Part shown: piece by piece, positions 18,906 to 59,329 of the stretch | How the letters are laid out: the number at the start of each line of letters is the position of its first letter | How positions within the stretch are numbered: position 1 is the stretch's first letter | NCBI GenBank assembly: GCA_032718475.1 | Contig: JAUCBJ010006589.1 | Span: forward strand, 1 to 59,329 | Source of the DNA: Nemertoderma westbladi | Lineage: Eukaryota; Animalia; Xenacoelomorpha | DNA: 59,329 nucleotides | Direction: 5' to 3' | The notes under the pieces: model-generated | What the model saw: the letters and a program-made list of their open reading frames with translations, nothing else | What the model was told of the DNA's origin: nothing | The model's database searches: none | Translations under genes and position numbers: made by a program

Positions 18906-18931
18906 TAATCAATAAATAAGTCATAATACAG

Positions 18932-20447
18932 GCAAAAATTCGAAATTTAGGAGCGCATCAACACAATTGTGATGTGCTACTGAGAGGAGAGGGTAAGCTA
19001 ATGGTCGTTTATAGACCCACCCCTGGTCACAATTACTCTGAGAAAGATTATAGTCCATGTCCTACTTGTTTAGGCTGGTACGTTAGGCGAGATTTATGGC
19101 GACACAGATGCCCAGTTGAAATCCAAAAGAAGAGTAGGCGTTTCTTATATGAAAGCGAGCTTTTAAAGCCTACGAACATGGGTATATCTGGAAAAATTTC
19201 TGAAGTATTAGGGACTATGCGCCCAGATAATGTCTCAATTGTGGTGAAATCAGATCCTACTATAATGAAAATGGCAAAAAGCCTGTGTCACAAGCACGGT
19301 CATAATAAAGAAAGAAACGCTTATATCCGTGATAAGCTTAGAGAGGTGGGGCGGTTGTTGGTTCAGTTGCGCATATGTACAAACAAACCAAATGGTAAGT
19401 TGAGTGATTATTTGCGCCCAGAATGTTTAGATAACGTCATAGAAGCGACCCATCAAATTGCAGGCTTTGATAGTGACACACTGTCTCTAAGTAACCCATC
19501 GCTCGCATTGAAGATTGGACATGCTGTGAAGAAATGCGCTACGTTATTAAAAGGTACCGCAATAGAACATAATGATAGCCAACTTCTCAACATTACAGAC
19601 AATTTCCTTCATCTTTGTGATTTACGCTGGTCTGACTTCGTATCAGCCCACGCACTCAGAACAATATATGATCGTAAACGCAACACAAGTGATAATTTAC
19701 CAGTTACAAGCGATGTTGTGAAATTCTGCGAGTATCTGCAGCGTAACATTGACATCCATATAGGGAAATTAATTTCGGGTCATTCAAATTGTAAAGAACA
19801 ATGGGGGGTCCTTAGTGAGATTGTATTGTCTTATTTAATCATATTCAATCGGAGAAGGCAAGGAGAGGTCAGCAAAATGAAAGTTCAGGATTTCAATAAA
19901 TCAATAGACTCGGGAACTGTAAATAATTCGATAGATACGAATGATTTAGAAGAATTAGAAGTTCAACTAATGAAAATATTTCATGTTGTGGAAATTGTAG
20001 GGAAGAGGGGTAGAAATGTTCCGGTTTTACTCACGGACAAGATTAAAGAAGCACTAACTCTCTTAATAAAATTAAGGAACATTGTTGGCGTTAACGAGAT
20101 GAATCCCTATTTATTTCCAAGATCGAGTCAGGGAAGCCTCTGGCACATACGTGGATACGAAGCAATAAATAAGCACGCCATCCTTGCTAAATTGCTAAAT
20201 CCAGAAACTATGAAATCTACCGATCTTAGGAAGCATCTAGCCACGAGTGTACAGGTCTTGAATCTGAAAGAGAACGAGCTCGATATTTTAGCAAATTTTA
20301 TGGGGCACGACATTCGTGTACATCGAGAGTATTACAGGCTGCCCGATAAAGTCCTACGTGTCACACAGCTTTCCAAGGTTTTCTTAGCCATGGAACAGGG
20401 AAAGATAACAGAACATCGTGGCAAGAGCTTGGAGGAGATTACTTTAG
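18932..20447 (+). CDS. Tyrosine recombinase (CryptonV-type) main exon
   Basis: IRNLGAHQHNCDVL (upstream of the annotated ORF start), CxxC...LWRH zinc motif, and catalytic-type motifs FNRRRQGEV, GKRGRNVPVLL, STDLRKHLAT, FMGHDIRVHREYY. Donor TAG|gtaatg at 20447. Confidence 0.9.
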
Positions 20448-20877
20448 GTAATGGAATTTTAATAATTAGATGAAACTGTTCGTTCCGTCTTGTTTCTTAT
20501 ATTTGTTGTGTTTTTAATAAACCCTAAATCATGTTCCTGATCTGCTTCGATTGTACCATCGCTTCTTACTGAACTACTTGTAATTGTTTCTGACTATTGT
20601 CTTGTTTTACTGCTGTTTGTGATAATAATTGTTTTGTTCCGAATAATTAATTGTTTGTCCGAATAATTACCGCATAATCTAATAATTGCACAATATTTCT
20701 TCCCGATTGCGTGTTATCATACAGTAATTGCTCTATTGTTATGTGAGTATTGACATCTGATGTCTCTAAATATTGCACTGCTCAAAAACTAAACGTGCTT
20801 CAATTTAAATATTATTGTTATCAGAGTGCCTGTTTACACAATTCAACATGTTGATTCAACATTTTACCTTTTACCTT

Positions 20878-39503: not shown

Positions 39504-42500
39504 TTAAGTTGGGGAGTCCCTAGATGTCGGTTGGATTAGGGAAGTGGTCGTGGGAAGAGTTTCTTGCCTTCCATAGTTTCCGGAGAGCTCTCTGTCTCTT
39601 TCCAGTAAACATAAACGTCCCACTGGGCGATTGAGCTGTTGAGTCTCAAAGACTATCCCTGGTTTCTTAAAGTTCCGCCGCATGACGACGAGCTCTACTG
39701 ATCGCACCAAACCATCGCTCGAGATATAAGTCTCGATGATACGTCCTGTTTGCCATCGCTTACGTGGGAGATCGGGGTCCACAATAAGCACCATGTCTCC
39801 AGCGCTGACGTTTTCTTGCTGCGCAAACCACTTAGTTCGAAGTTGTAGAGTGGGCAGGTAATGTTTCTCAAAATGGTCAGCGAAACGACGGGATAGCAAC
39901 TGCATAAGTTGCCAGGTTCGACGGCAGTACTCGTCTCCGTCTGTGATCTCCGATTGCGGGAGCATGGCTACAGGTTTCTTCAGTAGAAAGTGCGCGGGTG
40001 TTAGCGCTTCCAGGGAATCAGGATTTGAAGAGACTGGCATAAGCGGTCTTTCGTTGAGATAGGCGGCGATTTCCTCCATTAACGTCCGCAATAGTTCGTC
40101 GGTGAGATAAGCGCGACAAGGCACGATGAAGTGGAACGCAGTCTTCACGCTCCTAATCAATCTCTCCCAACTTCCTCCCCACCAAGGGGCGTCGGCGGCG
40201 TTGAAGGTCCAGCTAGACGCTGTTATCCTTAGCTGATCGTCCACCTGTCTTTTATTCCAGTCCTTTACGTAAGCTTGAATTTCGTTGTTGGCGCCAATGA
40301 AGTTCGTTCCCTTATCCGATCTCATCGTGTTACTGGTTCCGAAGCGAGCGATCTGTCGTCGTAAACTCAACACGAAGCTGTTGGTGGATAGATCGTTTAC
40401 CATATCGAGATGGATAGCTCTACAAGTCATACAAACGAAGATGACACACCATCTCTTGACTATAGTCCGGGCACGATATACTTCAATAGGGCCAAATAAA
40501 TCCACACCGGTATTAGTAAAGGGTGGTTCATAGAAGCTTACTCTTTCCCTAGGTAATTCTGCCTCTCGCTGTGTTAAAGGCCTACTGAATGCTTTCCTAC
40601 AGGGTATGCAGTTCCTAAGAACTTGGTTCAGAGCCCTACGGGGTTTATAAAAATAGTAGCGAGTTCGGATTTCGCTCAGAACCCGCTCTCTACCGGCATG
40701 GTACAGTTTGCTATGAACATCTACAATCATCTTGATTTGTATATCAAGATTTCTAATGAGTATGGGAAACTTAGTGTCAAAGGATAACGGGGCGTTGGTG
40801 AGCCGACCTCCAACACGTATTAACCCATCTATCATGGTACTAGAGAAGCGATCCCTTAAGCGCATCTGTGGATTTCTTAACAACAGGAAATACTTATCGG
40901 AATCCTCATAGCATTGTAGGAGTCTCAGCATCTGTTTGTTGGTTTCATCATGCTCCTGGTAGCTGATCTTCTCCTTTAGAAACCTGTGGGGTACCTTATA
41001 TTGGGGAAGATCTTTAACAACATGGACTCGTGCAGATGTTGATGGAGCATCATCACTATTGGTCTTTGTTCCGGAGTAACGATGATGAAAACATCGTTTC
41101 AAATAGGTGACGGCCTTACAGAGCCGATTCCAGGAACTGTAGTGACGTATGGCTCTCTGCAAGAGAGGTGAGAGTCCTTGCGAGATATCTGGTATTCCAG
41201 ATTTCCAATCCTTGTCACGGATTTCCAAGACTTCTTTCGTCGTGGCGGTGGGTTTCTGATCCAAAGCATCATCTCCGGAAGTAAATAATACAGATAGATC
41301 AACCGCAGGTTTAAACAACTTCGATTTACTCGCTCGAGTTTTGGGTTTAACTTTCTCCGCTCCCTTGGCCTGTCTGATCTCTGCTGTTGTGAGATGGGGT
41401 GGCCATTCTTCTTCTTCTCGGTAGAGAAAGTCGGGTCCACCTAACCATTCGGGAGTATTTACCAATTCCTTTGGAGTCGCTCCTCGGGACGCGATGTCCG
41501 CTGGATTAATCGTTCCGGGGCAATGTCTCCATTGGTCCATCGTCGTGCGACTAAGTATGATGGCTACTCTGTTGGTAACGAAGACGCTGAACTGACAGAC
41601 TTCATTGGTTATATACTCTAACACGAGTAAAGCGTCGGTCCAATATACAGTTTTCTCTAATGTATAGTCAATCTGTTCGGTTACATTCCGGCCGATGGCT
41701 GTAGCGTATAGAGCCGCTTTCAACTCCGCTCGAGGAACTTTCAACTTGTTGTTGATTAATGCCTTAGAAGTAACCAAGGCGACTTTGATTCCATCCGGAG
41801 TTTCCACTCTTAGGTAGGCTACTATACCGATTCCCATATCGCTGGCGTCTCCAAACACATGGAGTTGATAGGAATACGTAGGGAGAACATGACCAAAATA
41901 TGAACGGGAAATTATAAACTCCTCGATCGCTGGTAGAGAATCTTCCCATTTCATCCACTGCTTCAGTAATTCCCCCTTAAGTGGATCGTCCCATGAGTGG
42001 TTTTCAAGCCACATTTGTTGTACTAAACTACGAGCAATCAATATAACTGGGCTAATAAATCCCAATGGATCGAAATAGGTGCTCAGTATACTTAAGCAAA
42101 TCCGTTTGGTTCGAACTGGATTATCTCGCTGCTTTAGTTGGAAAAACAGGATATCTCTCTCTGTGTCCCATTTCAAGCCGAGTGTCTTGGTTTCTGGCAG
42201 ATCATCTTTGATCAAATCGAGATCTTTCGCTCCGCGATCTTCCGCAGGAATCGACTCCAGAAACTCACGGGAGTTGCTGGTGAATTTTGTTAATCGAAAA
42301 CCACCTCTTTTTAAGCACTCTACCGTTCCCTTAGCGACCTCAATGGCTTCTTCAACTGATGGGAGGGACTTCAGATTGTCGTCCATGTATATGTCTTTCT
42401 TGATATTGTCGATTACTTCCTTAGAGAATGCCTCTCGATTGTCCTCTGCAGTAGTACGCACGACCGAACAGGCGTTGGAAGGGCTTGAGATTATCCCAAA

Positions 42501-45218
42501 GGCCTGGATGGTCATCCAGTACTCCACCGGTTTCTGGTTGAGGTCTCCTTCGGGCCACCATAGAAATCGTAAGCTATCTCGATCCCTATCCAACACTTTG
42601 ACTTGCAAGAACATGCCTTCTATATCAGAGGCGAAAGCAATCGAATATTGTCTAAGTCTTAAAAGAATTCCCAACAAAGATTGAAGTAAGTTGGGTCCGG
42701 GTAACAATTCAGAGTTAAGGGATTGACCCATGTAAAGAGCGGAGCCATCAAAAACTACTCTCACTTCGTGGGGTTTACCGGGTTTAGGAACGTAATGGTG
42801 AGTTAAATAATACGTTCTTTCAGTCACAGGTGTTTCTTCCGGTACTCTCTCCGCGTATCCCTTATTGATAAATTTTTCTAGCTGTGTTTGATACATGGCT
42901 TTCGCTGAAGAATTAACCGTAAGGCGTCGATGGAGTTGTGCGATTCTTTTTTCCGCCAGGGGTCTGTTATTGATGAACTTCGGTTCTTTCTTGCGGAAAG
43001 GTAAACCGACTTCATACCTACCTTGATCTTTGAGGAAACATGTAGTTGTCTCTTGGATCTGCTTGGCCCTTTCCTCTTCTACAGACAAGGCTTTATCGTA
43101 GGAATTGGGCTCTACCGCCTCTTGCATAAAGAATCGTACGGCATGTTCATCCCGAATCTTGGCATTATGACGCTCAATGACGTCATTTAACTCGTCGTTA
43201 TAAGCTTCTCGTTCAGATGGATAGAGAAGTTGACATAAGTTAACTTGATTTTGCCAAGCATCGTTTTCCTTAAGGAGATCGATGGTATTCTCCTCATCAA
43301 AAAGCTGGTGAACATCGTCGTTATCTGAGGAGTATGGAGTTCCCTCAGTTGAATCGTCTCCCTCACTAGCATCATCTTCCCATTCACTCACCTTGTAGAC
43401 TCTCTCTTGCGGTAGTCTTTCTCTGAGTGTTCTACGGGAAGGGCCAGTAAAGTACCAACCTACTCTAGTTCTTACCGCATAGGTCTGTAGGGGCTGCGGT
43501 TGAGCAGGCCGTTTCTCTAACGTCTCCAGCGCCTCATGCGCGTTTTGGCCGATGAGTATTTGCACTCCAGGATAATCAGTCTGAAATCGAGGTATGTTAA
43601 GATGTTGGATGCTCTCATCCTCGTCCCAATTATAAAGGTCTGCTTGAGTAGTAGCGAAGTTCTTTATAGCCACCATTTTCACTAACCTTATGCTGTGTTC
43701 TCCTAGTTCGTCCTGGGGGGTGGACAACGCTCCAACATAATAATCAGCTGTTATTGTAGATTTCCAAACTTGCATAATGCCTGACATGTTGAGCTTAGTT
43801 TGAAACTTGGGTTGTCCAGCAAATATATCTTCGGCTAACTCTTTATCGATAAATGTTCCTGTGCTGCCGGAGTCCAGGAGGGCGTTCACTACATAACTCC
43901 TCTTAGGTCCGTGAACCCTTACCTGTACCACAGGAAACTCTCGGATCCCTACATTGGAGGATGTCTCTTTCCAAGGTGGTTGTCGTTCAGAAGTAGTTAG
44001 AGTAAAGTCGTTCTCTGTATCTTTCTCATATGTTAGTGCTCGATACACTGCGGTATTTATCATGTAACAGGATTCGTTTTCGTCAGAGAACTCGTCTGTA
44101 TAGAATCCTTCCATCTCAGATTGATCAGTGTCGTTCACATCACTGAATTGGACATGTAGCTCGGAATCACTTACCTGATTCGGACTATTTCGATCGAATT
44201 CAGCGTGCAACAAGATATGATGTTTCGCACCACACTTTGCACACCTTATGTCAGAGAAACAGGTTCGCCGTTGGTGTCCTTGTCTGAGGCAATTATAACA
44301 TAACCGCTTATCCCACATAACTTCGCGTCTCTCCGTTAATGATTTCTTTAGAAATTCATCACACCTATTCAAATAGTGGGTCCCGTCACACAGCGCACAT
44401 TTTGGTTTGATGTTACTTACCTTATTCTGAGTCACATTGTGTACACTTGCCTTTTCTTCGGGCTTTCTCACCTGAATTCTCTTGGGAGACGTGGGAGGAG
44501 TTTTTCTTGCTTGTTCTCTCCTGTCATTTGTTCGAGACTTGAATTTACTTACCTGATCTTTAGGCATTTTATTCACGTAATAAGATCTATCCGTGTCCTT
44601 CCCGCTATCTTCTCCTTGAGAAGTCTGGCTTTCGCCGTCATCGGTATAACATACTGGTGTTATTTTTCTCCTAGAGACGGGTTTTTCGCTTACCTTGTTT
44701 TCCGGTGTTTTCTCCCTAGACAGTTTCAGGAGCTGTAATTTCACTTCTCCATCTAGGAATGACATGAGATCAGCCATGGTAGGGTCTCTCCGTTGTTGTT
44801 CCATCATATATAACACTTTCTTATCCCAGCGTGTACCTACTCCACCCTTAGGTAAAGTAGAAGCCACTGCTCTAATAACCATAGTGTTCTGATACTCATG
44901 AGACTTACCTAGCCAATCTAATTGTCTGCAGATCTCCTGGATCTCATCGGAAAACTCGATAATTCCGCTACTAATAAACTTTCGGGGCGCTACTAACTTG
45001 GCATACAAGTACCCAGCGATATTATTCCTATTACCATACCTGATGTTTAGTGTATCCCAAACTTGTCTTAATCCGTCTGGATGTCCAATAAACTTTAACG
45101 CCATTAACTTGGGAGATCCTTCCAAGCACTCGATGAGGTATCTAAGTTTTTCTCCATTAGATAGTACAGAGTTCTGTATGTTATCTTTGTAATATTCATT
45201 AAAAGGTAACCATTTCAT
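39504..45218 (-). CDS. BEL/Pao Gag(C-term)-Pol polyprotein
   Basis: Three Cys/His knuckles, protease LLDSGS, RT YMDD, RNase H HVFGDAS, integrase HHCC, GVDLFGP, SDKGTNF, WERLI. Confidence 0.95.
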   Translation of the reverse strand: MKWLPFNEYYKDNIQNSVLSNGEKLRYLIECLEGSPKLMALKFIGHPDGLRQVWDTLNIRYGNRNNIAGYLYAKLVAPRKFISSGIIEFSDEIQEICRQLDWLGKSHEYQNTMVIRAVASTLPKGGVGTRWDKKVLYMMEQQRRDPTMADLMSFLDGEVKLQLLKLSREKTPENKVSEKPVSRRKITPVCYTDDGESQTSQGEDSGKDTDRSYYVNKMPKDQVSKFKSRTNDRREQARKTPPTSPKRIQVRKPEEKASVHNVTQNKVSNIKPKCALCDGTHYLNRCDEFLKKSLTERREVMWDKRLCYNCLRQGHQRRTCFSDIRCAKCGAKHHILLHAEFDRNSPNQVSDSELHVQFSDVNDTDQSEMEGFYTDEFSDENESCYMINTAVYRALTYEKDTENDFTLTTSERQPPWKETSSNVGIREFPVVQVRVHGPKRSYVVNALLDSGSTGTFIDKELAEDIFAGQPKFQTKLNMSGIMQVWKSTITADYYVGALSTPQDELGEHSIRLVKMVAIKNFATTQADLYNWDEDESIQHLNIPRFQTDYPGVQILIGQNAHEALETLEKRPAQPQPLQTYAVRTRVGWYFTGPSRRTLRERLPQERVYKVSEWEDDASEGDDSTEGTPYSSDNDDVHQLFDEENTIDLLKENDAWQNQVNLCQLLYPSEREAYNDELNDVIERHNAKIRDEHAVRFFMQEAVEPNSYDKALSVEEERAKQIQETTTCFLKDQGRYEVGLPFRKKEPKFINNRPLAEKRIAQLHRRLTVNSSAKAMYQTQLEKFINKGYAERVPEETPVTERTYYLTHHYVPKPGKPHEVRVVFDGSALYMGQSLNSELLPGPNLLQSLLGILLRLRQYSIAFASDIEGMFLQVKVLDRDRDSLRFLWWPEGDLNQKPVEYWMTIQAFGIISSPSNACSVVRTTAEDNREAFSKEVIDNIKKDIYMDDNLKSLPSVEEAIEVAKGTVECLKRGGFRLTKFTSNSREFLESIPAEDRGAKDLDLIKDDLPETKTLGLKWDTERDILFFQLKQRDNPVRTKRICLSILSTYFDPLGFISPVILIARSLVQQMWLENHSWDDPLKGELLKQWMKWEDSLPAIEEFIISRSYFGHVLPTYSYQLHVFGDASDMGIGIVAYLRVETPDGIKVALVTSKALINNKLKVPRAELKAALYATAIGRNVTEQIDYTLEKTVYWTDALLVLEYITNEVCQFSVFVTNRVAIILSRTTMDQWRHCPGTINPADIASRGATPKELVNTPEWLGGPDFLYREEEEWPPHLTTAEIRQAKGAEKVKPKTRASKSKLFKPAVDLSVLFTSGDDALDQKPTATTKEVLEIRDKDWKSGIPDISQGLSPLLQRAIRHYSSWNRLCKAVTYLKRCFHHRYSGTKTNSDDAPSTSARVHVVKDLPQYKVPHRFLKEKISYQEHDETNKQMLRLLQCYEDSDKYFLLLRNPQMRLRDRFSSTMIDGLIRVGGRLTNAPLSFDTKFPILIRNLDIQIKMIVDVHSKLYHAGRERVLSEIRTRYYFYKPRRALNQVLRNCIPCRKAFSRPLTQREAELPRERVSFYEPPFTNTGVDLFGPIEVYRARTIVKRWCVIFVCMTCRAIHLDMVNDLSTNSFVLSLRRQIARFGTSNTMRSDKGTNFIGANNEIQAYVKDWNKRQVDDQLRITASSWTFNAADAPWWGGSWERLIRSVKTAFHFIVPCRAYLTDELLRTLMEEIAAYLNERPLMPVSSNPDSLEALTPAHFLLKKPVAMLPQSEITDGDEYCRRTWQLMQLLSRRFADHFEKHYLPTLQLRTKWFAQQENVSAGDMVLIVDPDLPRKRWQTGRIIETYISSDGLVRSVELVVMRRNFKKPGIVFETQQLNRPVGRLCLLERDRELSGNYGRQETLPTTTSLIQPTSRDSPT

Positions 45219-45355
45219 CTCATCTCCATTGAACTTGACGATCTCTCCAACCTTTTACAGCTTGCCGGGCTTCGGTTCTAGCCATTTGACGCGTAAAACT
45301 TTCTTGGGCCATCGTGCTATTTAATATCGAGTTATCGGTATATAAATTTCTCGGA

Positions 45356-47575
45356 TTATGAGCAAGTTCTATAGGGAATATCATTATCAACAGGTCTATA
45401 ATTACCCTTAATAGGGTTCACTATAGGAGTTTCTACCTCGCTAGCAGTATATATGCGTGTAGGCTCCACACCTTGCGCATGCAATACTTCAGACCTAACA
45501 GGTTGACACATTGTTACAGAGGGTGGTGGTATACCCTTTTTTAAGTTTACTAATTTATCGCGTTCTAACGCGATACTTTGCTGCACTTCTTGCAACTCTA
45601 ACTTACTTTCCCTTACTGTGCCCTTGAACTGCTGGACAGTCTCCTGCATCTGTCCGAGCAGGATATCCATCCCCCGCCGTCTCTCGTCCACCCATTCGAC
45701 CGCCGAAGCGGGAGTCGCCAACGTTGTAGCGGGCGGACGAGGGACAACGGGAGACAAATCTGGAATATTTCGCTCGGGGTCCAGGACCTGAACTGTCTCC
45801 TGGGCAGTTCTACGGGGCTCAGGTAGCTTAGTGCTATGTAGAGGGAATTTAGAGGTAGCTTCAGGGAGCACAGGTGTATCTATTACCGTAGGGGTGATTT
45901 CAAGAACAGGCCTACCTATTTCAGGCTCATCTACTATAGTAGGGAGTCTTTCTATTTTAATTATTTGGTCTGTGGGCTCTGTACTACCTAAGTTGGTGTT
46001 ATTTAGCTGCCTTCTAACAGCTGGAGGCAAATCAGGCAATTTCTGACGGTGGAATGTTCTTTTACGTCGACTGGGACGAGATCTATTTCCCTTGCCTTCA
46101 GTATCGGTGGTATCGCCTTCCTCAGATGATGTATATCCCTGTCTTTTGGGAGTAGATCGATTCATCATCTGCATATTACTAGCTGCTAACTGTTTATTTA
46201 TGCAGTCTTGATTCTCCTGAATGTTTTCCAATTCTAATTGGGTGATTTCGTCAGCCGCTTTCCTTTCTGCTTCTGCCACTTTTGTCTCTGCCGCTGCCTC
46301 TGCCTCTGCCGCTGCCTTGGCCGCTGCCGCCTTTGCCTCTGCCGCTGCCTTGGCCGCGACCGCCTTTCTTTCTGCTTCTGCAACTACTACTGCTGCTTTC
46401 TTTCTGTCTTCTATACGTTTTTTCCTTACTTGTTCTTCCCTTTCTCTAGCAATGCGGAGTTGTTCATCGAATTTAGCTTGGTTCGCCGCTAACCTATCCA
46501 CATCAATCGCATCTAACACAAGTTTGGCTCCTTCGCTATTAGGGCTAAGTCCCTCTAGCCTTCTCCTCAACTCTTCATCTCCCACAAAACGCTGATAGTC
46601 TGACAGATAGATATCAATGGCATCCCTCTTATGCGGTTTCTCTGCCGTCGCTTCACTTTCCACTTGGGAAAAAGTAGCGTCTGTTGATTCTCCATGGGTT
46701 GATCGCTCCTCTAGCTGAGCTTTCCACTGAGCAGTTCCTCGAACCTGGAGATTCACTCTTTGAAACCAAGTCTTTACGGCAACTTGCAACGACGTGTCTT
46801 GCCTTCTTTTAGAAGCCTCCTCAAAGGCGGATAAGATTAGCCTAATCCGCAGAACTCTTTCTCTAACTTGATAAAGCAGCGATCCCTGCTCTTGAGGTCC
46901 TGGAGGTTGTTGAAAAAGTTGCTTTTCTATTCGCTCCATAGAGCTGAAGAATCCCTGTGCGTATCCGGCTGCGGACCTCTTCCACACAGCTGGATCGATG
47001 GTTTCCTTGGCTACTCCCATCCGGTGTATGTCTTCCCAGGCAGCTTCTGATAAATCAAACGGGAGTCCGGGTCCGGGGAAGTTCCATTGCGACTCGACAA
47101 TAGACTTCAGTTCTTCACTAGTGTAGCCCGCGTAGCTATCTCTAGTTGACCGTTGACTTCTCGCCCAATCGATCTGGTGTTCTTCCACCGCGATCAATAA
47201 CCCAGCGAGCACGGCTGCAGGAAGGATGAGAAGGGGATCCGTATAAACCGCATCCGTCATCTCTGCTCCGCTCTCGGGTGTCAGCTCTACAGTATCCTCA
47301 CTACTGGAGCTGCTGGGCCGCTGAGGAATAAGTTCTTGACTAGCGGGTTGTTGCTGTTCCGCCGCTTGTTGGTCCCGCTTGACCTGAGCTCGGGTGCCTA
47401 TGATAGACCTACGATGTTGGACCAGCCTAGGTTCTGTTATTACTACTGGAGGGATGACCTTCCTCACAGTGGGAGGTGAACTGGATTTACGACCAGACAG
47501 TTGTACGTCTCTATCTGAGTCGCAGATAGTTACATCTAATAAACTGTCTGACAGGTTCTGCTTAGTATCAGACAT
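45356..47575 (-). CDS. BEL/Pao Gag N-terminal coiled-coil region
   Basis: 739-aa ORF with an Ala/Glu/Lys coiled coil. It joins the downstream ORF through two +1 frameshifts near 45375 and 45253. Confidence 0.8.
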   Translation of the reverse strand: MSDTKQNLSDSLLDVTICDSDRDVQLSGRKSSSPPTVRKVIPPVVITEPRLVQHRRSIIGTRAQVKRDQQAAEQQQPASQELIPQRPSSSSSEDTVELTPESGAEMTDAVYTDPLLILPAAVLAGLLIAVEEHQIDWARSQRSTRDSYAGYTSEELKSIVESQWNFPGPGLPFDLSEAAWEDIHRMGVAKETIDPAVWKRSAAGYAQGFFSSMERIEKQLFQQPPGPQEQGSLLYQVRERVLRIRLILSAFEEASKRRQDTSLQVAVKTWFQRVNLQVRGTAQWKAQLEERSTHGESTDATFSQVESEATAEKPHKRDAIDIYLSDYQRFVGDEELRRRLEGLSPNSEGAKLVLDAIDVDRLAANQAKFDEQLRIAREREEQVRKKRIEDRKKAAVVVAEAERKAVAAKAAAEAKAAAAKAAAEAEAAAETKVAEAERKAADEITQLELENIQENQDCINKQLAASNMQMMNRSTPKRQGYTSSEEGDTTDTEGKGNRSRPSRRKRTFHRQKLPDLPPAVRRQLNNTNLGSTEPTDQIIKIERLPTIVDEPEIGRPVLEITPTVIDTPVLPEATSKFPLHSTKLPEPRRTAQETVQVLDPERNIPDLSPVVPRPPATTLATPASAVEWVDERRRGMDILLGQMQETVQQFKGTVRESKLELQEVQQSIALERDKLVNLKKGIPPPSVTMCQPVRSEVLHAQGVEPTRIYTASEVETPIVNPIKGNYRPVDNDIPYRTCS

Positions 47576-48939
47576 GACTATGTATACCGTTGAATGTCTA
47601 TTGCTGTATTACAGTCTGAGTAAGTCTAGTAACGCAGTATTACCTGCTAGCCTAGTAATTAATTACCGGTACTGCTACTCAGTGTAGCGTGATATATATA
47701 ATATATTAGAATACCGGTATGCTTATAGTATATATAACTATTATTACAGACTAGGTTTATCACAGAATACCGGTATAATTTTAGCACAAATATATATAAA
47801 TATATAATAGGCCTATCGGAATACCGGTATACAGCTTACAGTTTGTAGTATATATAATTCTGGACTAGAATTAATTACAAGTACCGGTATAATTTCAGCC
47901 GAAATTTATAGAAATAAAGATAATAGGCCTATCGTAAATACCGGTATATCAATTATTTTAAATAATTGAATTTCTGAATTTTAGGGTTACTTGGTTACTT
48001 TACTTACTTTATTACCGTTATTTGAGCAGTAATCCAACTGATATTGAGACCTAATGGTTGTATGGTAGGCCTACTATTTATAAATCGTTAGATTTGATTT
48101 ATAATATATATATACCCGTTTTAATGGGTTTTGTCAATGTTTGAAATAAATGTTATTATTTCTGGGGAGTAATCACTACACAAAGCGGTGCGCTTTCAGT
48201 GAAGTGTTACGTATAGGACACTAAAACAAATAATTCTAATTTACCTAAGTTACTTAATACTACAAATTACGTACAATTCGGGTGAGATTACAATCTCTAA
48301 ATAAACACAAAAATTTACAAAAACACAAATACGAATTTTTAGGGTGATTTTACAAGAAGTCTACAAACCAGCCTAACAAAGGGTTAGAAAACTGGTTATT
48401 ACAACGGACAGGGTACTACGGTATTTGAAATAATAAGTAGTAGTAAATACACTACGTTGTCTAGATAGAAAAATACCACCGCCTGACGACCTATAGCCGT
48501 ATCGCTATAGGTTCTACGTTATGTATCACGGAGTGTTCCTACCTAGAAGTTAATAGAGCTAATCGAATGTGCCTATCAACCACTTTACAACACAGATATA
48601 ATGTCTACAATAATTACTTCGGAAAGTACTGTACACTAAACCCTAAATTAGGTACGAGTACTTGTACAACAGATAATCAGTAGTTAAATATACTTGAACA
48701 GCTAAAAGAACCACGGCATCTGCTGGAGTGACCGATGCACAAAATCACCAGTCTTTACCTACGCCGAGCAGCCCGTGTAGTACCGGGGTTAATTTAACTA
48801 TAGCGGTATGTATAACAAACACAATTACTGTAGGAACAAACTTGGGGAATGAATGTTGCGGATAATCGCATAAACTCTGAATAATAAATATTACGCTACG
48901 CGTACAAACTACTCAAACAAAATACAGACCGAACACTGA

Positions 48940-49450
48940 CAGACTACTATCAAGCCTAAACAAACTACGGTATATGCAGACTCCGAAATGATTAGGGAGT
49001 ATGCGCTCTAACCCAGTAGTGCGACTTATTCTTTAGTTGGGGGATTACCTTACAGCGTTCGCTGCCCCTACTGCCTAATCGTACTTAATCGGACAGATGA
49101 TCTACACACGCGGCAATCCGTTCAGACCTAATAACAGCCAGACAACTATCCAGCCTACAAATTATCTAAGTAAAATTATACGCTACCCGTACAGACTTAC
49201 ACAAACAAAGTACAGACTAAACGATGGCAGACTACTCTCAAGCCTAAATAAACCACAGGACATGCAGACTCCGAAATGATTAGGGAGTATGCGCTCTAAC
49301 CCAGTAGTGCGACTTATTCTTTAGTTGGGGGATTACCTTACAGCGTTCGCTGCCCCTACTGCCTAATCGTACTTAATCGGACAGGTGATCTACACACACT
49401 GCAATTCGTTCGGACTTAACAGCAATCAGACAACAGCTCAGCCTACAAAT
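48940..49450. repeat. 288-bp-period duplication in the BEL 5' leader with an identical 123-bp core
   Basis: 48974-49096 equals 49262-49384 while the flanking parts of the units differ. Confidence 0.9.
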
Positions 49451-49745
49451 CGTCTGTACTATCTGATCAGGCTTACACGCCTTCTGTTCAATACTGGCCT
49501 ACAAATAAATAAAACTTGACAGAAATAAGTAAACCATATAAAGGTATAAGGGGTGATCAATCCCTAATCCCCTAAACAGCCTACCGGTATACAACAATCA
49601 AATCGAATAATACTAGTGTACTTATACGGAAGTACCGGTTAGAACAGTTAGGCCTACTGACCTACAGGTGTACCGTTCAGGTTTACCGGTTGACCGGTAC
49701 TTTCAACTTTATTGCTTACTGCAACAAAGAAGCTATATCCTTTAA

Positions 49746-50988
49746 TGTTCGCGCTTTCAGACCTTTGGCAGTTTAACCCACCAAATTAAGATGTCTTCTA
49801 GATATTAAATCAGTTTTTAGTCTATGACAAGTATTAGATTCACTACACTAGTCGAAACCAATCCGTGCGCGACCATTCACCCGCTGGATATTCCCGGGAG
49901 ATTGGGTTCGACGGTTTAATTTTATTGCTATGTAAGCCTAATGTATTATTCGACTGACAGTATTATATAATCTCTGACAATATTATTCACCTTCGGGAAT
50001 ATTAACAGTTCCTTTAGGACGTGGCGCTTTATCTATATAAACAGAGTTATGACTTAAACTACTCACAACGATATGGCTTAATTATAATTCACATATATGG
50101 CGCATTCTTTAGGAATGCTTCTTTAACAGACTCACTCATACACAATGCTGCACAATACTGCACACTAATCTGCCGATCTTCACTGATTTTAGTCACATAT
50201 AAAAGGAACACAGACTGACTCATGTAGGGTCTATCAAATAACATTAGATTCACTTCAAACCACTTTAACATAAGTCACAATCGTTTATCTGTAACCTTTC
50301 TCTCTTACCTTCGGTATATCAAGAATATTGGGTGTCGGGGTTATTTCTCATTATTCCAATATAATAATTCATCAACAAATATAATGAATAACCGACAACA
50401 AATAGCAGTATAAAACAACAACTGAACACTGATTGTTATGAGTTTGCAATGTTTCAGCAGTCAGTATGTATGATCAGTTAGCAGTGATTCCATGAGTCAG
50501 GTAGTCGTTAGTTAAAGGATATATGCCCTTTATAATTAAACCTACTAGTGTAAGACTAAAAACAGTAAAGCACAAAATACTTCCAAGCCGTTCTTTCTTT
50601 GGCTCAGGACTGAATGTAAAAACTGCACATAGGCATTGCGTCATTTCTCGGAAATTTTCTGTACAAGGAGCCACAAAACGCTCTAATTGGCTGACTGAAC
50701 TGAGAGACGCCGTAGAACAAAGGAAATCAACACGTATGAATGTCAGCTGTTAACCGTAGTCATAGTAACTACTGTTCAAGAGTAGCTATCACCCCTTTGC
50801 GTCACGAATTGCCATAGAATCATAAAATATGCCTTTCACAGTACACATACGGAGGAAATAGGTCTTAGATCCTCTAAAAACACCGATACAGCAATAATAC
50901 GGTCTCTTACACTTATTAAATCAACTACAGAGTATTTTAATGTAAAAGATAATAAAAATAACGGGGCAATTCAGCAAAGGCTTTTACA
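49746..50988 (-). repeat. 5' LTR (1243 bp)
   Basis: Highly similar to 35058-36305. Confidence 0.95.
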
Positions 50989-51105
50989 CCTACACCGTGT
51001 GCGTCACCAGTACATCCAACGGGAGTACCGGATGCCGTAGTACGAGGCGACGGCAGGACCGAGGACTTTCTAACTGTTCCGCAACCTAGATATAAGGAAT
51101 CGGAC

Positions 51106-54100
51106 ATGATAAGTTCAGCAGGAAGTCAGGAAAGCGTTGTTAGAAGCGTCGGAGGCTATATGGCGCATATTACCAGGAGTATTGGAGAAGGCCAACGCAT
51201 ATTAGACGAGTTGACCGCTCCGATGTCTCGGTTCGAGTTCTACACTCTACAGGTGAGAGTACAAAGTAGAGTACATAAGTCCGTAGATAACCTAATTGGT
51301 CTACAAGATCTAGCTAGACAGAGACAGGACATGGATACTCAACTTAGAATCCTCGAGAAACTAATGATCGCTAGAGAGAAACTGATTCAGTTTAAGTCGA
51401 CGATTAGGCAGATACAACAGGAACAAGCGGACCAGTTGTTAGGTGAGTCAGTTTCGGACGAATTATTGCAACCCGAGGAAGAACAGGAACTGTACCGACT
51501 AGATGGACAATTGAAACATCTGACGGACCACTTGCGTATGTGCGGCGAAGACGTCGGCGATTTGGAAACCATGCCGGAATATACGAGGGAAACTTCACCC
51601 GTACGAATTGAATCGGCACCGGGAATACTGGACCAATCGTTAGTGAGTATTCGCAGCGAAATTGGCGAGATAAGTATAGTGACGTCAGAAATTTCCAGAC
51701 AGCAACAACAGCACGATGGACAACAACGGGAAGCTGAGGAACAAGCTCAACTGTTGACGGCACAAGCAGCCGTACAAGAAGAGAAACTACGCGTTGCGAA
51801 TGTTGTAAGAATCTCTCATCTGCAAGAACAAGCCGAGTTGGAAGCGGCTGAGATGGAAAGGTTGGAGCTAGAAATAGCACAGCGAACAGCGGCAGCTGAG
51901 TTAGCGCAACAAGCGGCAGCAGCTGAGTTAGAACGACAAGCAGCGGAGTCGGAGCGACGAGCAGCAGCAGCGGAACTAGAGCGACGAGCAGCAGCAGCGG
52001 AACTAGAGCGACGAGCAGCGGAGTTGGAAGAACACAAGCGAGTTTCGGAAGCAAGAGCTGAAATGAAAAAACGGCAAATAAAGGCTCAATCAGCGATAAG
52101 ACAAGCGGAGCTCGAGGCGCAACAACAACAGACGGAACAACGCGAGAAGGAAGTTAAACTTCATTTCGAACTCGGGAAGAAGGCGAGAGAATTAGCCGAC
52201 GCGAAGGAAGATCTGGATCTACAAGCCCGCGATCGATCGATGAGATCTCGAAATGGACACGATCTAGACCAGTTAGAGGTAAGGCACCGCCAAATCCAGG
52301 AACGAATGAAGGAAGGTTCGGTAGGGGCACCTGGACGAGAAAGACAATTAGTTAAAGACTTATGTCAAAGATTCCCTCAGGTAACTCCTATGTTTGCACC
52401 GATAATGACTAAGGAACCTGTTTCGATTGCGGGTAGTAGTGATATTTCTCCTATCCATGGTGCGACGGAACACAGGTTAGTTATTCCGGACAAATTCATC
52501 CCGTCGAGAGCAACGTCGTCGCCTATTCCGAAAGTCAAGGTAAGTAACCCACCGATTACAGATCGTAGTAGTTTATTAGTCGGACCTGCACTACTGACGA
52601 CAAAACAGGTGAGTCCACCTTTGACGCCAAAACCTGTTACACACTACGCTTACCCAATGACGTTTAGGCCAACAAGGCCTTTGGATTCAAACGCTGTCTT
52701 CCGACCACCAGTCCAGTTTACATTGCAATCTACGACTTCGAGGAAGACTTGTGAGCCTACCGAACAACGGAGACCAGTGGATACGCGACCGTTCAACCAG
52801 TTTACATCGCAATCTACGACTTCGAGGAAGACTTGTGAGCCTACCGAACAACGGAGACCAGTGGATACGCGACCGTTCAACCAGTTTACATCGCAATCTA
52901 CGACTTCGAGGAAGACTTGTGAGCCTACCGAACAACGGAGATCAGTGGATACGCGACCGTTCAACCAGTTTACATCGCAATCTACGACTTCGAGGAAGAC
53001 TTGTGAGCCTACCGAACAACGGAGACCAGTGGATACGCGACCGTTCAACCAGTTTACATCGCAATCTACGACTTCGAGGAAGACTTGTGAGCCTACCGAA
53101 CAACGGAGATCAGTGGATACGCGACCGTTCAACCAGTTTACATCGCAATCTACGACTTCGAGGAAGACTTGTGAGCCTACCGAACAACGGAGATCAGTGG
53201 ACGATGTTCCGAAACGAAACGTTAGAATTCGTACGACGCAACGGACGCGAGCACGTCGACACACTCGGTCTAAACACTGGCACACTTTTGTAGACTATAT
53301 CGAATCTCAGATCGCCGTGTGCGCCTTTACATCACGGGAGAAGTTTAATTACCTGCTTCAAACGTTGTCAGGAGAACCTAAACGTTTGGCGGAGACTTTC
53401 GTTGGTGTACCGGACGCCTTCGAACTAGCGTACGATCGTTTAACTTCGATATACGGAGGTACAGTCAGCATGGCCAGGTCAGTGATAGAGGAACTCTGTA
53501 AGGGAGGGGCTATCACTAAACGCGTCGACTTATTAAAACTGGCTGACGAGATATAGAACGCTATCACTACTTTAAGATCCATTGGACAACTTGACTACGG
53601 GAATACCCCTACAGTCCTATTAAAGATCATAGGACGACTCCACCATCGACTTCGTCGGGAGTGGAGAAAGATCGAATACCAGCGGGAAGAGCGGGGTGGA
53701 TTCTTAAAACTAGAGGATGTGTACCTTTTGATATCCAGGGAGGCAGTGGTAGAAACTCGATCCAACTACACTGACCAGCACATCGTGGCAGAAGGAATCA
53801 CCTTGCCATCCTCAAACCGACAAAAACCCCAGACAACATCCACTAAGACGGCCACTTACGCCACACCGACGGAATCACGACAATTCTCGGACGGTAGTAG
53901 GGTATCTGCGCCCATTGGGACAAAACAGACGAGACAGCAACTCAGTACCGACTTCAGCGGCTGCCAATACTGCGAGCATTTAGGCAAGCGGTATAGCGGT
54001 CACAAGTTGAGAGGTTGTCGACAGTTTCGCGAGTTAAACTCGGAAGAACGACGGCTGCAGATACGGCCATTGGACTCTTGTTGGCGGTGTACGCGACACG

Positions 54101-54447
54101 GACACGTCCGTAAAGATTGCCCAAATACCGACACTTGTCCATTCTGTGGACGCAACCACGACGGTCTGCTCCACACAGACAGCCACATGCCGACAAAACG
54201 CTTCGCTAGGGAACACCCGGAAGCAGCAGCGAAATGTAATGCGGCCTATAAGAATCGAGAATCGAAAACGACTCCAACCTTCGTGACCCATATTGAGGAT
54301 TGCTTCTCAGAACAATCCGGATCGTCGGACGAAGAGTCAGAAGACGACGACGTATATTCGGATGGAGATGAACAGCCATCGATCGCGCTTCTGACTACTG
54401 ACCAACTAAAGGGATTCAGTGTACCTAAAGAGGTGAGGTCTCTATAG
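51106..54447 (+). CDS. Gag of the second BEL element with one in-frame TAG (53554-53556)
   Basis: ORFs 51106-53556 and 53719-54447 share a frame. Motifs EKFNYLLQTLSGEP, CWRCTRHGHVRKDC, CPFCGRNHDGLLH. Confidence 0.85.
52714..53200 (+). repeat. 84-bp (28-aa) coding tandem repeat, about 6 copies
   Basis: QFTSQSTTSRKTCEPTEQRR[P/S]VDTRPFN units, near-identical. Confidence 0.95.
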
Positions 54448-55647
54448 GGGTGCGCTGAACAGGCGGCGGCGGACTCGTGAGGGTCTGGGGGCACGTTAAA
54501 TCAATCCTAAGTGCAAGGGAGATACTTAAGGCCCTCGTGTCTAACGAACCATGAATTGCCATGGTGCCGTGGTATCGCCTAGTCGGCCTGTTGCCGTACT
54601 GCCAGTCCTGTACACAGTAGGGGTGGTGGCATGGTGTGATTTGTGGCTCATGTGGCGTGGACTATGTTTTGTATGTGGGCGATCAGTGGCAGTTTGCTTG
54701 GGGCTTGGATGGTTCCATTGACCGTCAGCTGTTCCGTTTCTTTGATACTATATGTTATTGTCTCCATGTTCAGCTGATTGGTCTTTGGTGGCATTGGAAT
54801 AAACCGTCGGGTCTCGAGTTTTCTGTTGCTGTGGGTACGTGAGTACACGTGATTGTATGTGTGGCCACTGCGAGTGGGTATGGGAACCCTTACCAGTTGG
54901 ACAAGACGCCGCTGGTATTAGTAGGACCATACTTTACTGCACCCCAGCATACTTTGTGCACACACGTTATTTTACCCTGTCGGTAAAATAAAGTACTCTC
55001 GACTCTTTTCGAGTTTCAGTCGATACAATTTTGTCCCCTCTGATTTTGTCTTTCCCGATTTTGACCCCGATTTTGTCTTTACCCGATTATGTCCTCTGTG
55101 TGTGCATGGTATGTGTCAGATTTTGTGTTTACCGTAGTGTACTTGATTTCGTGAACATCTGTTGAGTACACGTGTACAGGACGGGTAAGTGGTTACTTGT
55201 TCCTAGCTTTCGAGCTAGTCAATATTGTTTGTGGAACTTACTTCCCCTCAATATTGCCGGCGAGGCAGGTGAAAACGTGTCAATATTCCATGTTGGGTAG
55301 CGCAAGCCCACATGGGACAAGACCGTCGGTTAGGCCCAAGGGCGACCTTGGTGCTCGATCGCTATCGACTGGTCCACCTGCCGGTTGACTCTTTGTTATA
55401 CTTTGAGTTGGCTCAATGTACAGTCAGGCCACAGTAAGTTGACAGTAGCCGCCCATCTGGCTACACGTTCGACGAGCTGTGCTGGTGTGATCGGGGGACC
55501 GAAAACAGAAACCGGGAAGCATCAGGCCACCCTCCGGCCCGGTCTGATAATAACATCTGTCGGACTGGCCCCAAGGGTGGTGGAAACACGTCCGCCTCGT
55601 GGGTGCGCCTCGGAGTTATCGGAGAGGAGCCCAAAAGGACGAAAGTG
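54435..55647 (+). ncRNA. Putative group I self-splicing intron / group I-like ribozyme between gag and protease
   Basis: P3 ggcaggtg 55264-55271 / cacctgcc 55375-55382; J3/4 aaa; P4 acg(t)gtc / gaccgt; P5 with GCAA loop; P6 cggtt/gatcg with GCGA-capped extension; J6/7 cta; P7 t(c)gactg 55365-55371 / cagtca 55421-55426; P8 ggttgactc/gagttggct; J8/7 caatgta. Removal restores the gag-pol frame. Confidence 0.75.
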
Positions 55648-55648
55648 A

Positions 55649-58600
55649 ATTCCGATTAAGATTACTGGCACAAAAGGGAGTAAGAGAATCTACGCTATCC
55701 TGGATTCAGCCTCATCTCACAGCTACGTGGACGAGCAGATAGCTGACGTAGTGACGGATCTCAGACACGGTAAGCGCATCAGCTATACCGTAAGTAGTAT
55801 GCACGGACAACGTGCAATACCAGTGACACGAGTTAAGTTAAACTTAGACTCTCTTCTTCCGAAATCGCAACACAGCGAAAGGGAGAGGTCTTTGTTACCC
55901 TTCAAGGATTTGACTTTTGCGGCCACCAAAGACTTTAGTAACCTACTAGGTCCGGTCCCAGAACAATCCTTGGAGGACCGTAAGTATTTCAGACACCTTG
56001 GTGTACCTGAATGTCCTGTTAATTATAGGTCGGTAGCCATGCTGATCGGGACGGACCAATTCAACCTACATCAAGTGTGGGAAACCAGACCATCGGCAGT
56101 CGTAGCGGTAAACGCATACGCCTGTAGAACGCCGATAGGGTGGTATACTCGAGCGCCTGTGCGCACACTGGACATAAGTGACGAGGAAGACGATGTACAA
56201 AGTACATGTAGTTTATTAACTACAAATTCAATTCATTCCTTTTCACACGACGTGGACCATACTACCTTACATACAAAACATGACAGACGTGTAACTAGTA
56301 TGATAAGTCACAAGGAGCAGCTAATCCACCAGGTGAGTTTAGAACTTGGGGAGAAGACGAGTCAGCTAGAGATTCCATCGACGACAGATGATAACGCCGG
56401 AAGGCTTGCGAGTCTACCTACCCCAATAACCTCAACAATGCCCGTCGATATTGATGATGACGCGTTGAGAAATCATCAATTGGAACAAGCTGTATTGGAC
56501 AAAGAATTAACGGAGAAGACTATCAGGTGGTTAGAACAAGATACAGCTGAACCTGGTAGCTACGAACCATGTATGTCGGAACAAGAGAAACAATCTTTGA
56601 GGATCATGGAAGATACTATCCGCCAGACGAAAGACGGACATTATGAGGTGGGGATGTTATGGCGTAGCCAAAGTCCTAAACTTATAAATAACTACCCACT
56701 AGCTTTAGGACGTCTACACTCAATACGACAACGTCTATTAAAGGACGAGAAAGCCCATCTGCAGTACAACACTCAGATGGAGACGTATTTGACTAAGGGA
56801 TACGCTATCCGAATGACTAACCCAGAGATAGTGACTAACCAGACATACTACCTGCCACATCACTATGTGAGACACCCCGACAAACCAGATAAAGTACGCG
56901 TAGTCAATGACTGTGCGGCTCTGTTTGAGGGAATGTCCCTCAATAGCGAGTTGATGGATGGACCAAACATGAATAATTATCTTATGGGGGTGATTATGCG
57001 CTTCCGTCAGCGTCAAGTAGCTTTTACTTGTGACGTTGAAGCTATGTTTCACCAAGTGAGAGCGTTAGAGCAAGACAAAGACAGTTTGAGGTTCCTCTGG
57101 TATCCGGAAGGAGACTTAAGTCTACCACCGGCGATTTACCAAATGCAAGTTCGCGTTTTCGGTGCCAGGGACAGCCCAAACTGTACCATGTATGCCCTAA
57201 AACAAGCCGCTAGGGATCAGAAACTCCTGTATGACCCAGAGATAATTAGGATTGTGGAACGTGACTTTTACGTCGACGACGGATTACAGAGTTGCGACAC
57301 AGTAGAACGTGCTACAACAGTAGCACATCAATTACGGGACTGCTTAGCGGGCGGAGGTTTTAACCTCACCAAATTCGCCTCAAACAGTGCCGAATTAGTA
57401 GACTCATTCGGAACGACTGAGCGTGGAGGTGGTGACATAGACCTAGAGTTCGAACCACTACCGACGACCAAGGTGTTGGGGCTCTTTTGGGACCCAAACA
57501 CGGACAACTTTCGAGTGAAAGTGAGACTGGACAGTCAAGAAAACACACTGACAAAGAGATCATGCTTGTCAAAATTGAGCCGATTGTTCGATCCATTAGG
57601 ATTCATCAGTCCAATTATACTGCAAGCCCGCATTTATATGCGCAGTATTTGGAAGGATGGACTGACATGGGACGAGCCGATCTCATCAGACCAAGTGGAC
57701 TTATGGAAGACCTGGGAGGCAGAATTATCTTCGCTAGAGGATTATTACATACCCAGAGTCTACTTTCCATTACAAACTACATTTCCTGACAACTTGGAAT
57801 TACATTGTTTTTCCGACGCTAGTGACAACGGTTTTGGTGTGGCAGCGTACTTGCGCAGACAAGTAGACTCAGAAGAATTCGATGTTTCGCTCATTACTTC
57901 TAAGGCAAAAACAATGCCTACTAAGTATATGACGACACCACGAGCTGAGCTACAAGCCGCAACCCTGTCAACCACCATCGTGAACCTCATACAGACAGAA
58001 CTACAGTCAAGTTTACAGATATTTTATTGGACTGACGCGACGTTGGTTTTATTTTACATAAATAACGACACACTTGAATTCAAGACATTCGTAGCTAACC
58101 GTCGCGCAGAAATTCTAGACCGTTCAATAAAAGAGGATTGGCGACATTGTCCCGGACCACAAAACCCAGCTGATATTGCGTCGCGAGGAATGATGCCTGA
58201 GGAATTCTGTAAACCGGAAAACAAAGAATTTTGGCAACACGGACCCTCATTCTTGCAGAAATCGATACAACATTGGCCTCCGTTATACGACAACAAATCT
58301 AACACCATCCCTAAGGACGCCGAAATCAAGAAACCAAAAAAGGGGAAGGCAAAGAAAAGGACGACGGCGGCAAAACTCAAGAAAAAACCGAAGGCGAAAT
58401 GGAAAGATATAACTTCAAAGGTCAAGAGAGGAAGACTTGCGAGCCTTTCTACACCAGACATATCACCAGACAGTCAACCAGACACGTTACTAGACGGTCA
58501 ACCAGACATTTTGCCAGACATGTCACAAAATGTTCTACCAGACACTAGTAACATACTGACAAATAGTAAAGCCGCAGTTTCCCTATTGGAGCGGCCTTCT

Positions 58601-59329
58601 GTTGACAAACAACCAGATACGTTACCAGACGTATCGCCAGACACATTACTAGACAGTCGACTAGACATTTTGTCAGAAACATCACAAAATGTTCTACCGG
58701 ACATTAGTAATGTATCGACTAACAGTAAAGCCGCAGTTTCCCTATTGGAGCGGCCTTGTATTGACAAACTACCAATTTTGACACACTTGAGCAACCATAA
58801 GCACGGTGAAACCTCATGTATTACAGATGTGGGTAGTACCTACGCTAATGTAAATACAGGTGTTACTCTGCGCTCAAGAGACATACCAAACTCGCAACCT
58901 ATGGTGAGACCTGGGATTAATATCGGCAGAAAAATAAGTTTACCGAAACCCAGTGACCCCATAGAGTTCAAACCACCATTAACGATCGACTTACAAAGTA
59001 CTGACAACCAGGATGAGAAGACGAAGAAGGACAAATTACTTGTAGACCCGGACGGATCAACAGTCAACAAGGGAATACTTACCGGCGGACCCGTGGGCCC
59101 TTCTAGTAATTCAAAACCTTCCAAATTCTTTGACTTACCTGATGACGTCACAAATACTTACGTCGACCGTATTGTAAACCTAACAGACTCTTGGTCAAAT
59201 GCTTGCCGAAAATTAGCGTGGATTGTACGTTTTGTACAATACGTTAAAGGCAAACGAGACTTTACACGTCGACTTACATTGGCTGAGATTGACAGGTGTG
59301 AGATTAAATTAATTCGCCATTACCAACTG
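55649..59329 (+). CDS. Pol (protease-RT-RNase H, continuing beyond the window) of the second BEL element
   Basis: IPIKITGTKGSKRIYAILDSAS, YYLPHH, DVEAMFHQV, DFYVDD, FDPLGFISP, HCFSDAS. It is absent from the ORF track, consistent with no stop before the window end. No ATG precedes the protease active site. Confidence 0.88.
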   Translation, partial: MPIKITGTKGSKRIYAILDSASSHSYVDEQIADVVTDLRHGKRISYTVSSMHGQRAIPVTRVKLNLDSLLPKSQHSERERSLLPFKDLTFAATKDFSNLLGPVPEQSLEDRKYFRHLGVPECPVNYRSVAMLIGTDQFNLHQVWETRPSAVVAVNAYACRTPIGWYTRAPVRTLDISDEEDDVQSTCSLLTTNSIHSFSHDVDHTTLHTKHDRRVTSMISHKEQLIHQVSLELGEKTSQLEIPSTTDDNAGRLASLPTPITSTMPVDIDDDALRNHQLEQAVLDKELTEKTIRWLEQDTAEPGSYEPCMSEQEKQSLRIMEDTIRQTKDGHYEVGMLWRSQSPKLINNYPLALGRLHSIRQRLLKDEKAHLQYNTQMETYLTKGYAIRMTNPEIVTNQTYYLPHHYVRHPDKPDKVRVVNDCAALFEGMSLNSELMDGPNMNNYLMGVIMRFRQRQVAFTCDVEAMFHQVRALEQDKDSLRFLWYPEGDLSLPPAIYQMQVRVFGARDSPNCTMYALKQAARDQKLLYDPEIIRIVERDFYVDDGLQSCDTVERATTVAHQLRDCLAGGGFNLTKFASNSAELVDSFGTTERGGGDIDLEFEPLPTTKVLGLFWDPNTDNFRVKVRLDSQENTLTKRSCLSKLSRLFDPLGFISPIILQARIYMRSIWKDGLTWDEPISSDQVDLWKTWEAELSSLEDYYIPRVYFPLQTTFPDNLELHCFSDASDNGFGVAAYLRRQVDSEEFDVSLITSKAKTMPTKYMTTPRAELQAATLSTTIVNLIQTELQSSLQIFYWTDATLVLFYINNDTLEFKTFVANRRAEILDRSIKEDWRHCPGPQNPADIASRGMMPEEFCKPENKEFWQHGPSFLQKSIQHWPPLYDNKSNTIPKDAEIKKPKKGKAKKRTTAAKLKKKPKAKWKDITSKVKRGRLASLSTPDISPDSQPDTLLDGQPDILPDMSQNVLPDTSNILTNSKAAVSLLERPSVDKQPDTLPDVSPDTLLDSRLDILSETSQNVLPDISNVSTNSKAAVSLLERPCIDKLPILTHLSNHKHGETSCITDVGSTYANVNTGVTLRSRDIPNSQPMVRPGINIGRKISLPKPSDPIEFKPPLTIDLQSTDNQDEKTKKDKLLVDPDGSTVNKGILTGGPVGPSSNSKPSKFFDLPDDVTNTYVDRIVNLTDSWSNACRKLAWIVRFVQYVKGKRDFTRRLTLAEIDRCEIKLIRHYQL

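Follow-up and report, generated by a model that had tools for sequence, protein, structure and literature searches.

How does a long terminal repeat (LTR) retrotransposon express pol when an insert of 1,225 nucleotides (nt) separates it from gag, and does the insert set the ratio of the two products? The question is raised by a BEL/Pao element at the end of contig JAUCBJ010006589.1 of the animal Nemertoderma westbladi, of which we analysed positions 1 to 59,329 of the forward strand (the window). An earlier note, made from the letters alone, had proposed that the insert is a ribozyme acting as a switch between Gag and Gag-Pol. The ribozyme part of that proposal holds: by every structural test that we ran on the sequence, the insert is a group I intron. 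Its boundaries, its frame and its P1, P10 and P3–P8 anatomy can be observed directly, as can copies of the element with and without it. With confidence little better than even, we take the intron to be an optional passenger of an animal BEL/Pao family, sitting between gag and protease and carried there without a homing endonuclease.

The element and its insert

The element has the following parts of a BEL/Pao retrotransposon: a DUF1759 gag, zinc knuckles, a protease, a reverse transcriptase (RT) region and a Pao domain, and in a domain search PF03564 (DUF1759) and PF05380 (Pao) both score above cut-off. Its 3′ part is incomplete, as the window ends inside pol. It shares 38–44% identity with most of the listed BEL polyproteins of marine animals, and its relatives among mussels, corals and echinoderms stand at about 40% identity. 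In 96 of the 120 relatives listed, from a search restricted to longer proteins, a single protein holds both the gag and the Pao domain; BEL/Pao elements normally have a single gag-pol open reading frame (ORF). A neighbouring BEL element in the window likewise carries both domains in one frame. The protease region gave no match when searched against long proteins.

The arrangement of the frames described in the earlier note was confirmed. On unspliced RNA, gag would be read into the insert and end 22 nt inside it, at the TAG at 54445–54447, giving a complete Gag with a short intron-encoded tail. The pol frame starts past the TGA at 55646–55648, which straddles the 3′ splice site, and remains open for 1,227 amino acids to the end of the window; its catalytic aspartate comes 18 residues in, with no methionine ahead of it. 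Removal of 54423–55647 is predicted to yield one gag-pol frame. The premature gag stop reported at 53554–53556, after which the frame runs from 53557 to 54447, is also present and is private to the window copy, all covering depth of the X1, X2 and X4 contigs (introduced below) having the other reading. Within gag, about six near-identical 84-nt tandem repeats follow one another in frame (52713–53201), and pol contains a 159-nt duplication (58453–58770).

The boundaries of the insert come from public contigs of four of the seven runs listed (X1, X2, X4 and X6), aligned to the window. Contigs of all four contain a joint from 54422 to 55648 that skips the 1,225 nt and is in frame; X6 is only guessed to be RNA, and we do not take its joint as evidence of splicing. 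The position of the joint is ambiguous by one base, and we chose the register that fits group I rules, with U as the last base of the 5′ exon and G as that of the insert (G55647). It places the splice junction in the first strand of the protease, at a run of hydrophobic residues followed by proline that is conserved in relatives. A P1 of at least 8 base pairs (bp) with a U.G pair at the site can be formed at 24 of the 1842 T positions in 50962–59200 (1.3%, the real site counted), and a family variant at 54459 in the contig alignment preserves its P1 pair as a wobble. The predicted hand-over of the guide from P1 to P10 is usual between the two splicing steps (PMC10964413). In a search for a homing endonuclease, no frame of more than 104 codons was found wholly inside the intron.

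The catalytic core adds comparative evidence. Across 20 homologues, the 25 named pairs of the pseudoknotted P3-P4-P6-P7-P8 core are 98.4% paired, against 26–42% in controls in which the alignment was slid. Nine of the 25 pairs change on both sides, a count inflated by the relatedness of the sequences, and none of 500 shuffles reached the covariation of the core, on all five measures. The 20 rows were picked by hand, with duplicates, most mitochondrion-like rows and rows without the P3/P4 motifs dropped. Bases within the search pattern cannot vary; P3 and the closing pair of P7 lie outside it, and here five of the eight P3 pairs have both partners changed, while the closing pair of P7 is changed in 12 of the 20 sequences. 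The one-base bulge in P4 (Table 1) may render the window copy inactive, and bulge and gag stop together suggest that this copy is probably dead.

Table 1. Positions of the BEL/Pao element, its intron and the parts of the intron in the window
Feature	Position	Strand	Remarks
gag, 5′ exon of BEL/Pao element	50962..54422	+	First in-frame ATG 51106; DUF1759; zinc knuckles; 84-nt tandem repeats
Group I intron	54423–55647 (1225 nt)	+	DNA joint, P1/P10 and core; no homing-endonuclease frame
P1	54415–54422 (exon) with 54452–54459 (guide)	+	8 bp; U54422.G54452 wobble at 5′ splice site
P1 extension	54423–54426 with 54448–54451	+	12-bp helix in local minimum-energy fold
Inner hairpin in P1 region	54429–54443	+	
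Gag-ending TAG on unspliced RNA	54445..54447	+	In P1 loop; Gag would gain 7-residue intron-encoded tail
P10	54447–54451 (5′ part of guide) with 55649–55653 (3′ exon)	+	5 of 5 pairs; competes with P1 extension
U+G-rich, indel-prone middle	54641..55240	+	37% T; no fold beyond chance
Catalytic core	55264..55426	+	P3–P8 order, with guanosine site in P7
P3	55264–71/55375–82	+	
P4	55275–81/55321–26	+	One-base bulge in window copy, absent from the 19 other aligned cores
P5	Within core 55264..55426	+	
P6	55327–28/55360–61	+	
P7	55365–71/55421–26	+	Bulged base and G-C of guanosine site
P8	55383–91/55405–13	+	
P9 region	55427..55647	+	Ends in terminal G 55647; motif 55486–55519 common to L002, L004 and L005
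pol exon	55648..59329	+	Protease from first strand, RT region, Pao domain (PF05380); open to window end

Homologues of the catalytic core

We searched for the core in other DNA with motif scans, which matched 3 metagenome, 31 viral and 15 genome-collection stretches. The upstream P3/P4 motifs, which are not part of the scan pattern, were found in most of the viral matches; one locus (L003) and several prokaryote matches lack them and were left out. Phages gave no match. Two looser patterns returned 151 loci, among which cores were present only in L058 and L061, both on contigs already found. A hidden Markov model profile built from 16 virus and organelle-type cores, with the window excluded, has a single match in the window (nhmmer, E 6.7e-26), and identity to these 16 cores is 54–67%. 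Homologous cores interrupt frames in large DNA viruses, which we take from their translations to be capsid, RNA polymerase and DNA polymerase genes, and frames in mitochondrion-like contigs that are presumably cox2. By its consensus motifs, the intron is putatively of subgroup ID.

Rfam RF00028, the group I model, gave no match in the window at gathering or E-value thresholds. Nor did it detect the homologous core in any of the 16 loci tested, where Rfam found other introns beside these cores. RF00028 is noted not to capture all group I subtypes (PMC6125680), which probably explains the missing match. Five large-DNA-virus contigs (L004, L005, L013, L015 and L022) contain introns of the same type missed by RF00028; these lie within or next to genes for capsid and RNA polymerase, and some of the contigs have two or more in tandem. 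In L004 and L005 the P9 motif is shared with the window intron, and the exon context at the splice sites looks similar by eye. No viral contig matched an exact 20-mer or the pol protein. A tree of 20 cores is weak, with 2 of 17 inner branches well supported; the four cores from eukaryote repeats lie on one side of a branch from the other two groups (support 57/96). We therefore claim no donor for the intron.

A homologous core also occurs in an unrelated LTR element. The contig L001 (1–1030), from a eukaryote, begins inside the intron and has the core in gag, upstream of the knuckle. Its gag and protease/pol share one frame, separated by a single in-frame TGA followed by CAA CTA, which we take to be a readthrough-type context. 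Relatives of the protease frame have retroviral-protease and RT domains, and gag matches in the atlas score under 0.9 and serve as a lead only. The earlier note had regarded occurrence of the insert at unrelated loci, regardless of frame, as refuting its proposal; L001, where a homologous intron lies inside gag, goes part of the way towards this. Two further homologous cores lack coding context: one beside a LINE-like (long interspersed nuclear element) 3′ end (L002, 2375–2582, minus strand) and one on a short contig that was binned with bacteria but may derive from a host (L042, 942–1147).

Optional passenger or Gag:Pol switch

By the reckoning of the earlier note, the switch proposal would be refuted if most intact family members lacked the insert, and this is seen in part. 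In-frame copies without it are present in all four runs and are the majority at the window site in X4. The depth of the intron-less joint and that at 54459 are 440 and 3785 in X1 and 499 and 5907 in X2, in both of which the intron-bearing form dominates, compared with 741 and 67 in X4, where the intron-less form does; contig depth is not copy number, and X1 may be the source of the window itself. In X4 the entire depth at 55768 comes from joint contigs, and the intron-less form exists in at least two sequence variants. Depth over the X4 intron interior (54510–55619) is about 900–3500, far above that at the 5′ junction (67), although summed depth is inflated in variable stretches; the excess may represent copies at other sites or a diverged carrier.

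Third codon positions hold 23 of the 30 listed gag differences (40 of 291 rows listed), a sign of coding constraint across the family. The pol frame is open over its 1,227 codons even though intron-less contigs diverge from the window by 6.5–14%, and the probability that it would stay open under 3% neutral change is about 0.005–0.016. An open pol fits working splicing in the intron-bearing lineage; recent gain of the intron, or recombination with intron-less RNA, fits too.

We propose the following mechanism. Guanosine would attack at U54422 held in P1, the P1 extension would yield to P10, and the 5′ exon would then attack at the terminal G, joining the exons. We infer from the structure that the intron splices itself, that spliced and unspliced RNAs coexist and that the spliced RNA is the sole source of Pol. 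Unspliced RNA would give Gag alone and, as the earlier note recognized, would be the only RNA able to pass the intron on to new copies. Partial splicing should be cheap at the gag-protease site: unspliced RNA still yields a whole Gag, a protein required in excess by LTR elements, and the intron would survive there for this reason. Its position can then be explained without a regulatory role, as incomplete splicing does least harm at this point. Because intron-less family copies exist and spread, we regard any effect on the Gag:Pol ratio as a by-product. What stands of the proposed switch is that splicing would restore one gag-pol frame and that unspliced RNA would encode Gag alone; that the family requires the intron, or has been selected to keep it, is unsupported as put forward.

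Several observations weigh against a mere passenger. Intron-bearing copies dominate in two of the three DNA studies (X1 and X2) despite the loss incurred at each splicing event before packaging; some bias therefore favours the intron, and this bias may be selection for its Gag:Pol effect. The site is also confined: the stretch from the last zinc knuckle to the protease aspartate, within which an insertion gives a whole Gag and no protease, spans about 101 codons, or at most about 4% of a coding length of at least 2332 codons. Splicing is a prediction here, made from DNA joints and structure, and the open pol frame could reflect the recent gain or recombination mentioned above. L001, a single 1,030-nt contig, is the only other LTR element in which such an intron was seen.

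Some of these points would be accommodated by a domesticated switch, a possible if doubtful reading. The family would depend on incomplete self-splicing for its Gag:Pol ratio, with unspliced RNA as both Gag message and genome, spliced RNA as the supply of Gag-Pol and intron-less copies as less fit by-products. The position, directly behind the knuckles and within the first strand of the protease, would suit such a role, as would the dominance of the intron-bearing form in X1 and X2. Indels near the core, among the 12 of 50 family rows listed, fall in the P8 loop and spare the helices. Excess Gag is required, and copia-type elements reach it by splicing (PMC5580714). However, the intron-less form, in at least two sequence variants, dominates the window site in X4, relatives normally have a single gag-pol frame, as does the neighbouring BEL element, and L001 has its intron at a different place, inside gag.

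It is improbable, in our view, that the intron is maintained by homing at the RNA level, whereby excised intron would reverse-splice into intron-less element RNA through P1 and P10 and the RT of the element would fix it in DNA. Nor do we expect re-invasion, rather than a packaging bias, to be what offsets intron loss, with new sites in other elements reached in the same way. Such homing is the route proposed for ORF-less group I introns (PMC10964413) and would suit an intron that has no endonuclease frame and whose related cores occupy different sites in other repeats (L001, L002 and L042). The high X4 interior depth would fit copies at other sites, but it is subject to the inflation already noted; no second insertion site is shown in the genome of the window, and homing is reported to be more efficient than reverse splicing (PMC10964413).

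The earlier note had also pointed to a spliceosomal-type donor, AG|GTGAGG at 54432/54433, as an alternative route. The motif is there, and a GT–AG junction from 54433 to the AG ending at 55660 would be in frame, leaving the ribozyme as a relic. We consider this very improbable: the GT lies inside the P1 loop, the AG has no preceding pyrimidine tract, four residues of the first protease strand that is conserved in relatives would be lost, and the corresponding joint is listed in none of the four runs, compared with four of four for the group I joint. A group II intron (GTGCG at 54450 to an AT ending at 55656) was rejected: it would be in frame, but the gag stop would stay in the exon, there is no Rfam group II match or domain V, the GTGCG lies in the guide and the DNA joint is elsewhere. 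Readthrough or frameshifting across the insert was rejected on account of the 12–17 stops in each of its forward frames, and readings by eye as an internal ribosome entry site or a hammerhead were dropped when the group I core was found.

Elsewhere in the window, the second BEL/Pao element (39504–47608, minus strand) lies head to head with the first. It is uninterrupted at the homologous gag-protease site, has no group I core in the profile search and shows a change of gag frame between 45356 and 45254. Upstream of it, a 258-nt unit occurs twice (48910–49455; 288 nt apart, 89% alike). A host gene at 1696–2958 has bilaterian glycosyltransferases as its best listed matches, at about 33–45% identity. 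The region 16731–20473 contains a long tandem-repeat frame and then, on the minus strand, a frame of 517 codons that weakly matches the tyrosine recombinases (PF00589, below cut-off at E 1.2e-4).

Relation to known systems

In the open-access literature that we searched by titles and the starts of abstracts, no group I intron in an LTR retrotransposon is reported, and the parts consulted of PMC7761336, PMC5709842, PMC10690162, PMC5009743, PMC2194720, PMC12220804 and PMC12308204 mention none. A review describes nuclear group I introns as restricted to ribosomal RNA (rRNA) genes, and metazoans as being without group I introns except for some non-bilaterian lineages and five sharks (PMC10964413). 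A group I intron in an animal BEL/Pao element is thus a setting new to the literature searched; a Gag:Pol ratio set by a ribozyme is a live idea, not an established one.

The occurrence of a covariation-supported group I intron within the coding sequence of an animal retrotransposon of high copy number, together with its relative in a second LTR element, points to a niche that has gone unnoticed because this subgroup escapes the standard Rfam model. As the RNA of the host element is reverse-transcribed in every cycle, splicing would be expected to remove the intron from the family. That it persists with no endonuclease offers a natural system in which to study both the spread of group I introns by reverse splicing plus reverse transcription and the way in which single-frame BEL/Pao elements obtain excess Gag. 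We would put forward only tentatively the broader idea of an overlooked, Rfam-invisible group I lineage, related to that of giant viruses, in animal LTR retrotransposons, one member of which this BEL/Pao family would have made its Gag/Pol switch and which would secure its own inheritance without an endonuclease.

The closest structural parallels are the group I introns of large DNA viruses and fungal mitochondria, a tentative placement based on the subgroup ID consensus. They share with the window intron the P3, P4, P6, P7 and P8 core, the U at the 5′ site, the terminal G, P1 and P10. The window intron differs in lying in an animal nuclear LTR retrotransposon, in carrying U+G-rich filler of about 600 nt but no endonuclease, and in that its host RNA is reverse-transcribed, so that splicing deletes it from the progeny. 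Nuclear rRNA introns (PMC10964413) and the introns of protist Polinton-like viruses (PMC12220804) are likewise group I ribozymes in eukaryote nuclear DNA; the latter occupy protist DNA elements and, unlike the window intron, are detected by Rfam (PMC12220804).

In IStrons, which combine a group I intron with IS605/IS607, an intron is likewise tied to a mobile element and splicing repairs the host frame, at levels that differ between loci (80% versus about 2%; PMC10690162). There, however, the intron is itself the transposon and encodes TnpA/TnpB, whereas the window intron is a guest in a retrotransposon and encodes nothing. With copia, BARE1 and EVD the window element would share the use of two RNA forms of one element to give Gag alone or Gag-Pol. 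In those elements the spliceosome makes the Gag-only RNA and the full-length RNA makes Pol (PMC5580714, PMC3735527). In the window element the roles would be reversed: Gag would come from unspliced RNA, and the message for Pol would be the product of a ribozyme.
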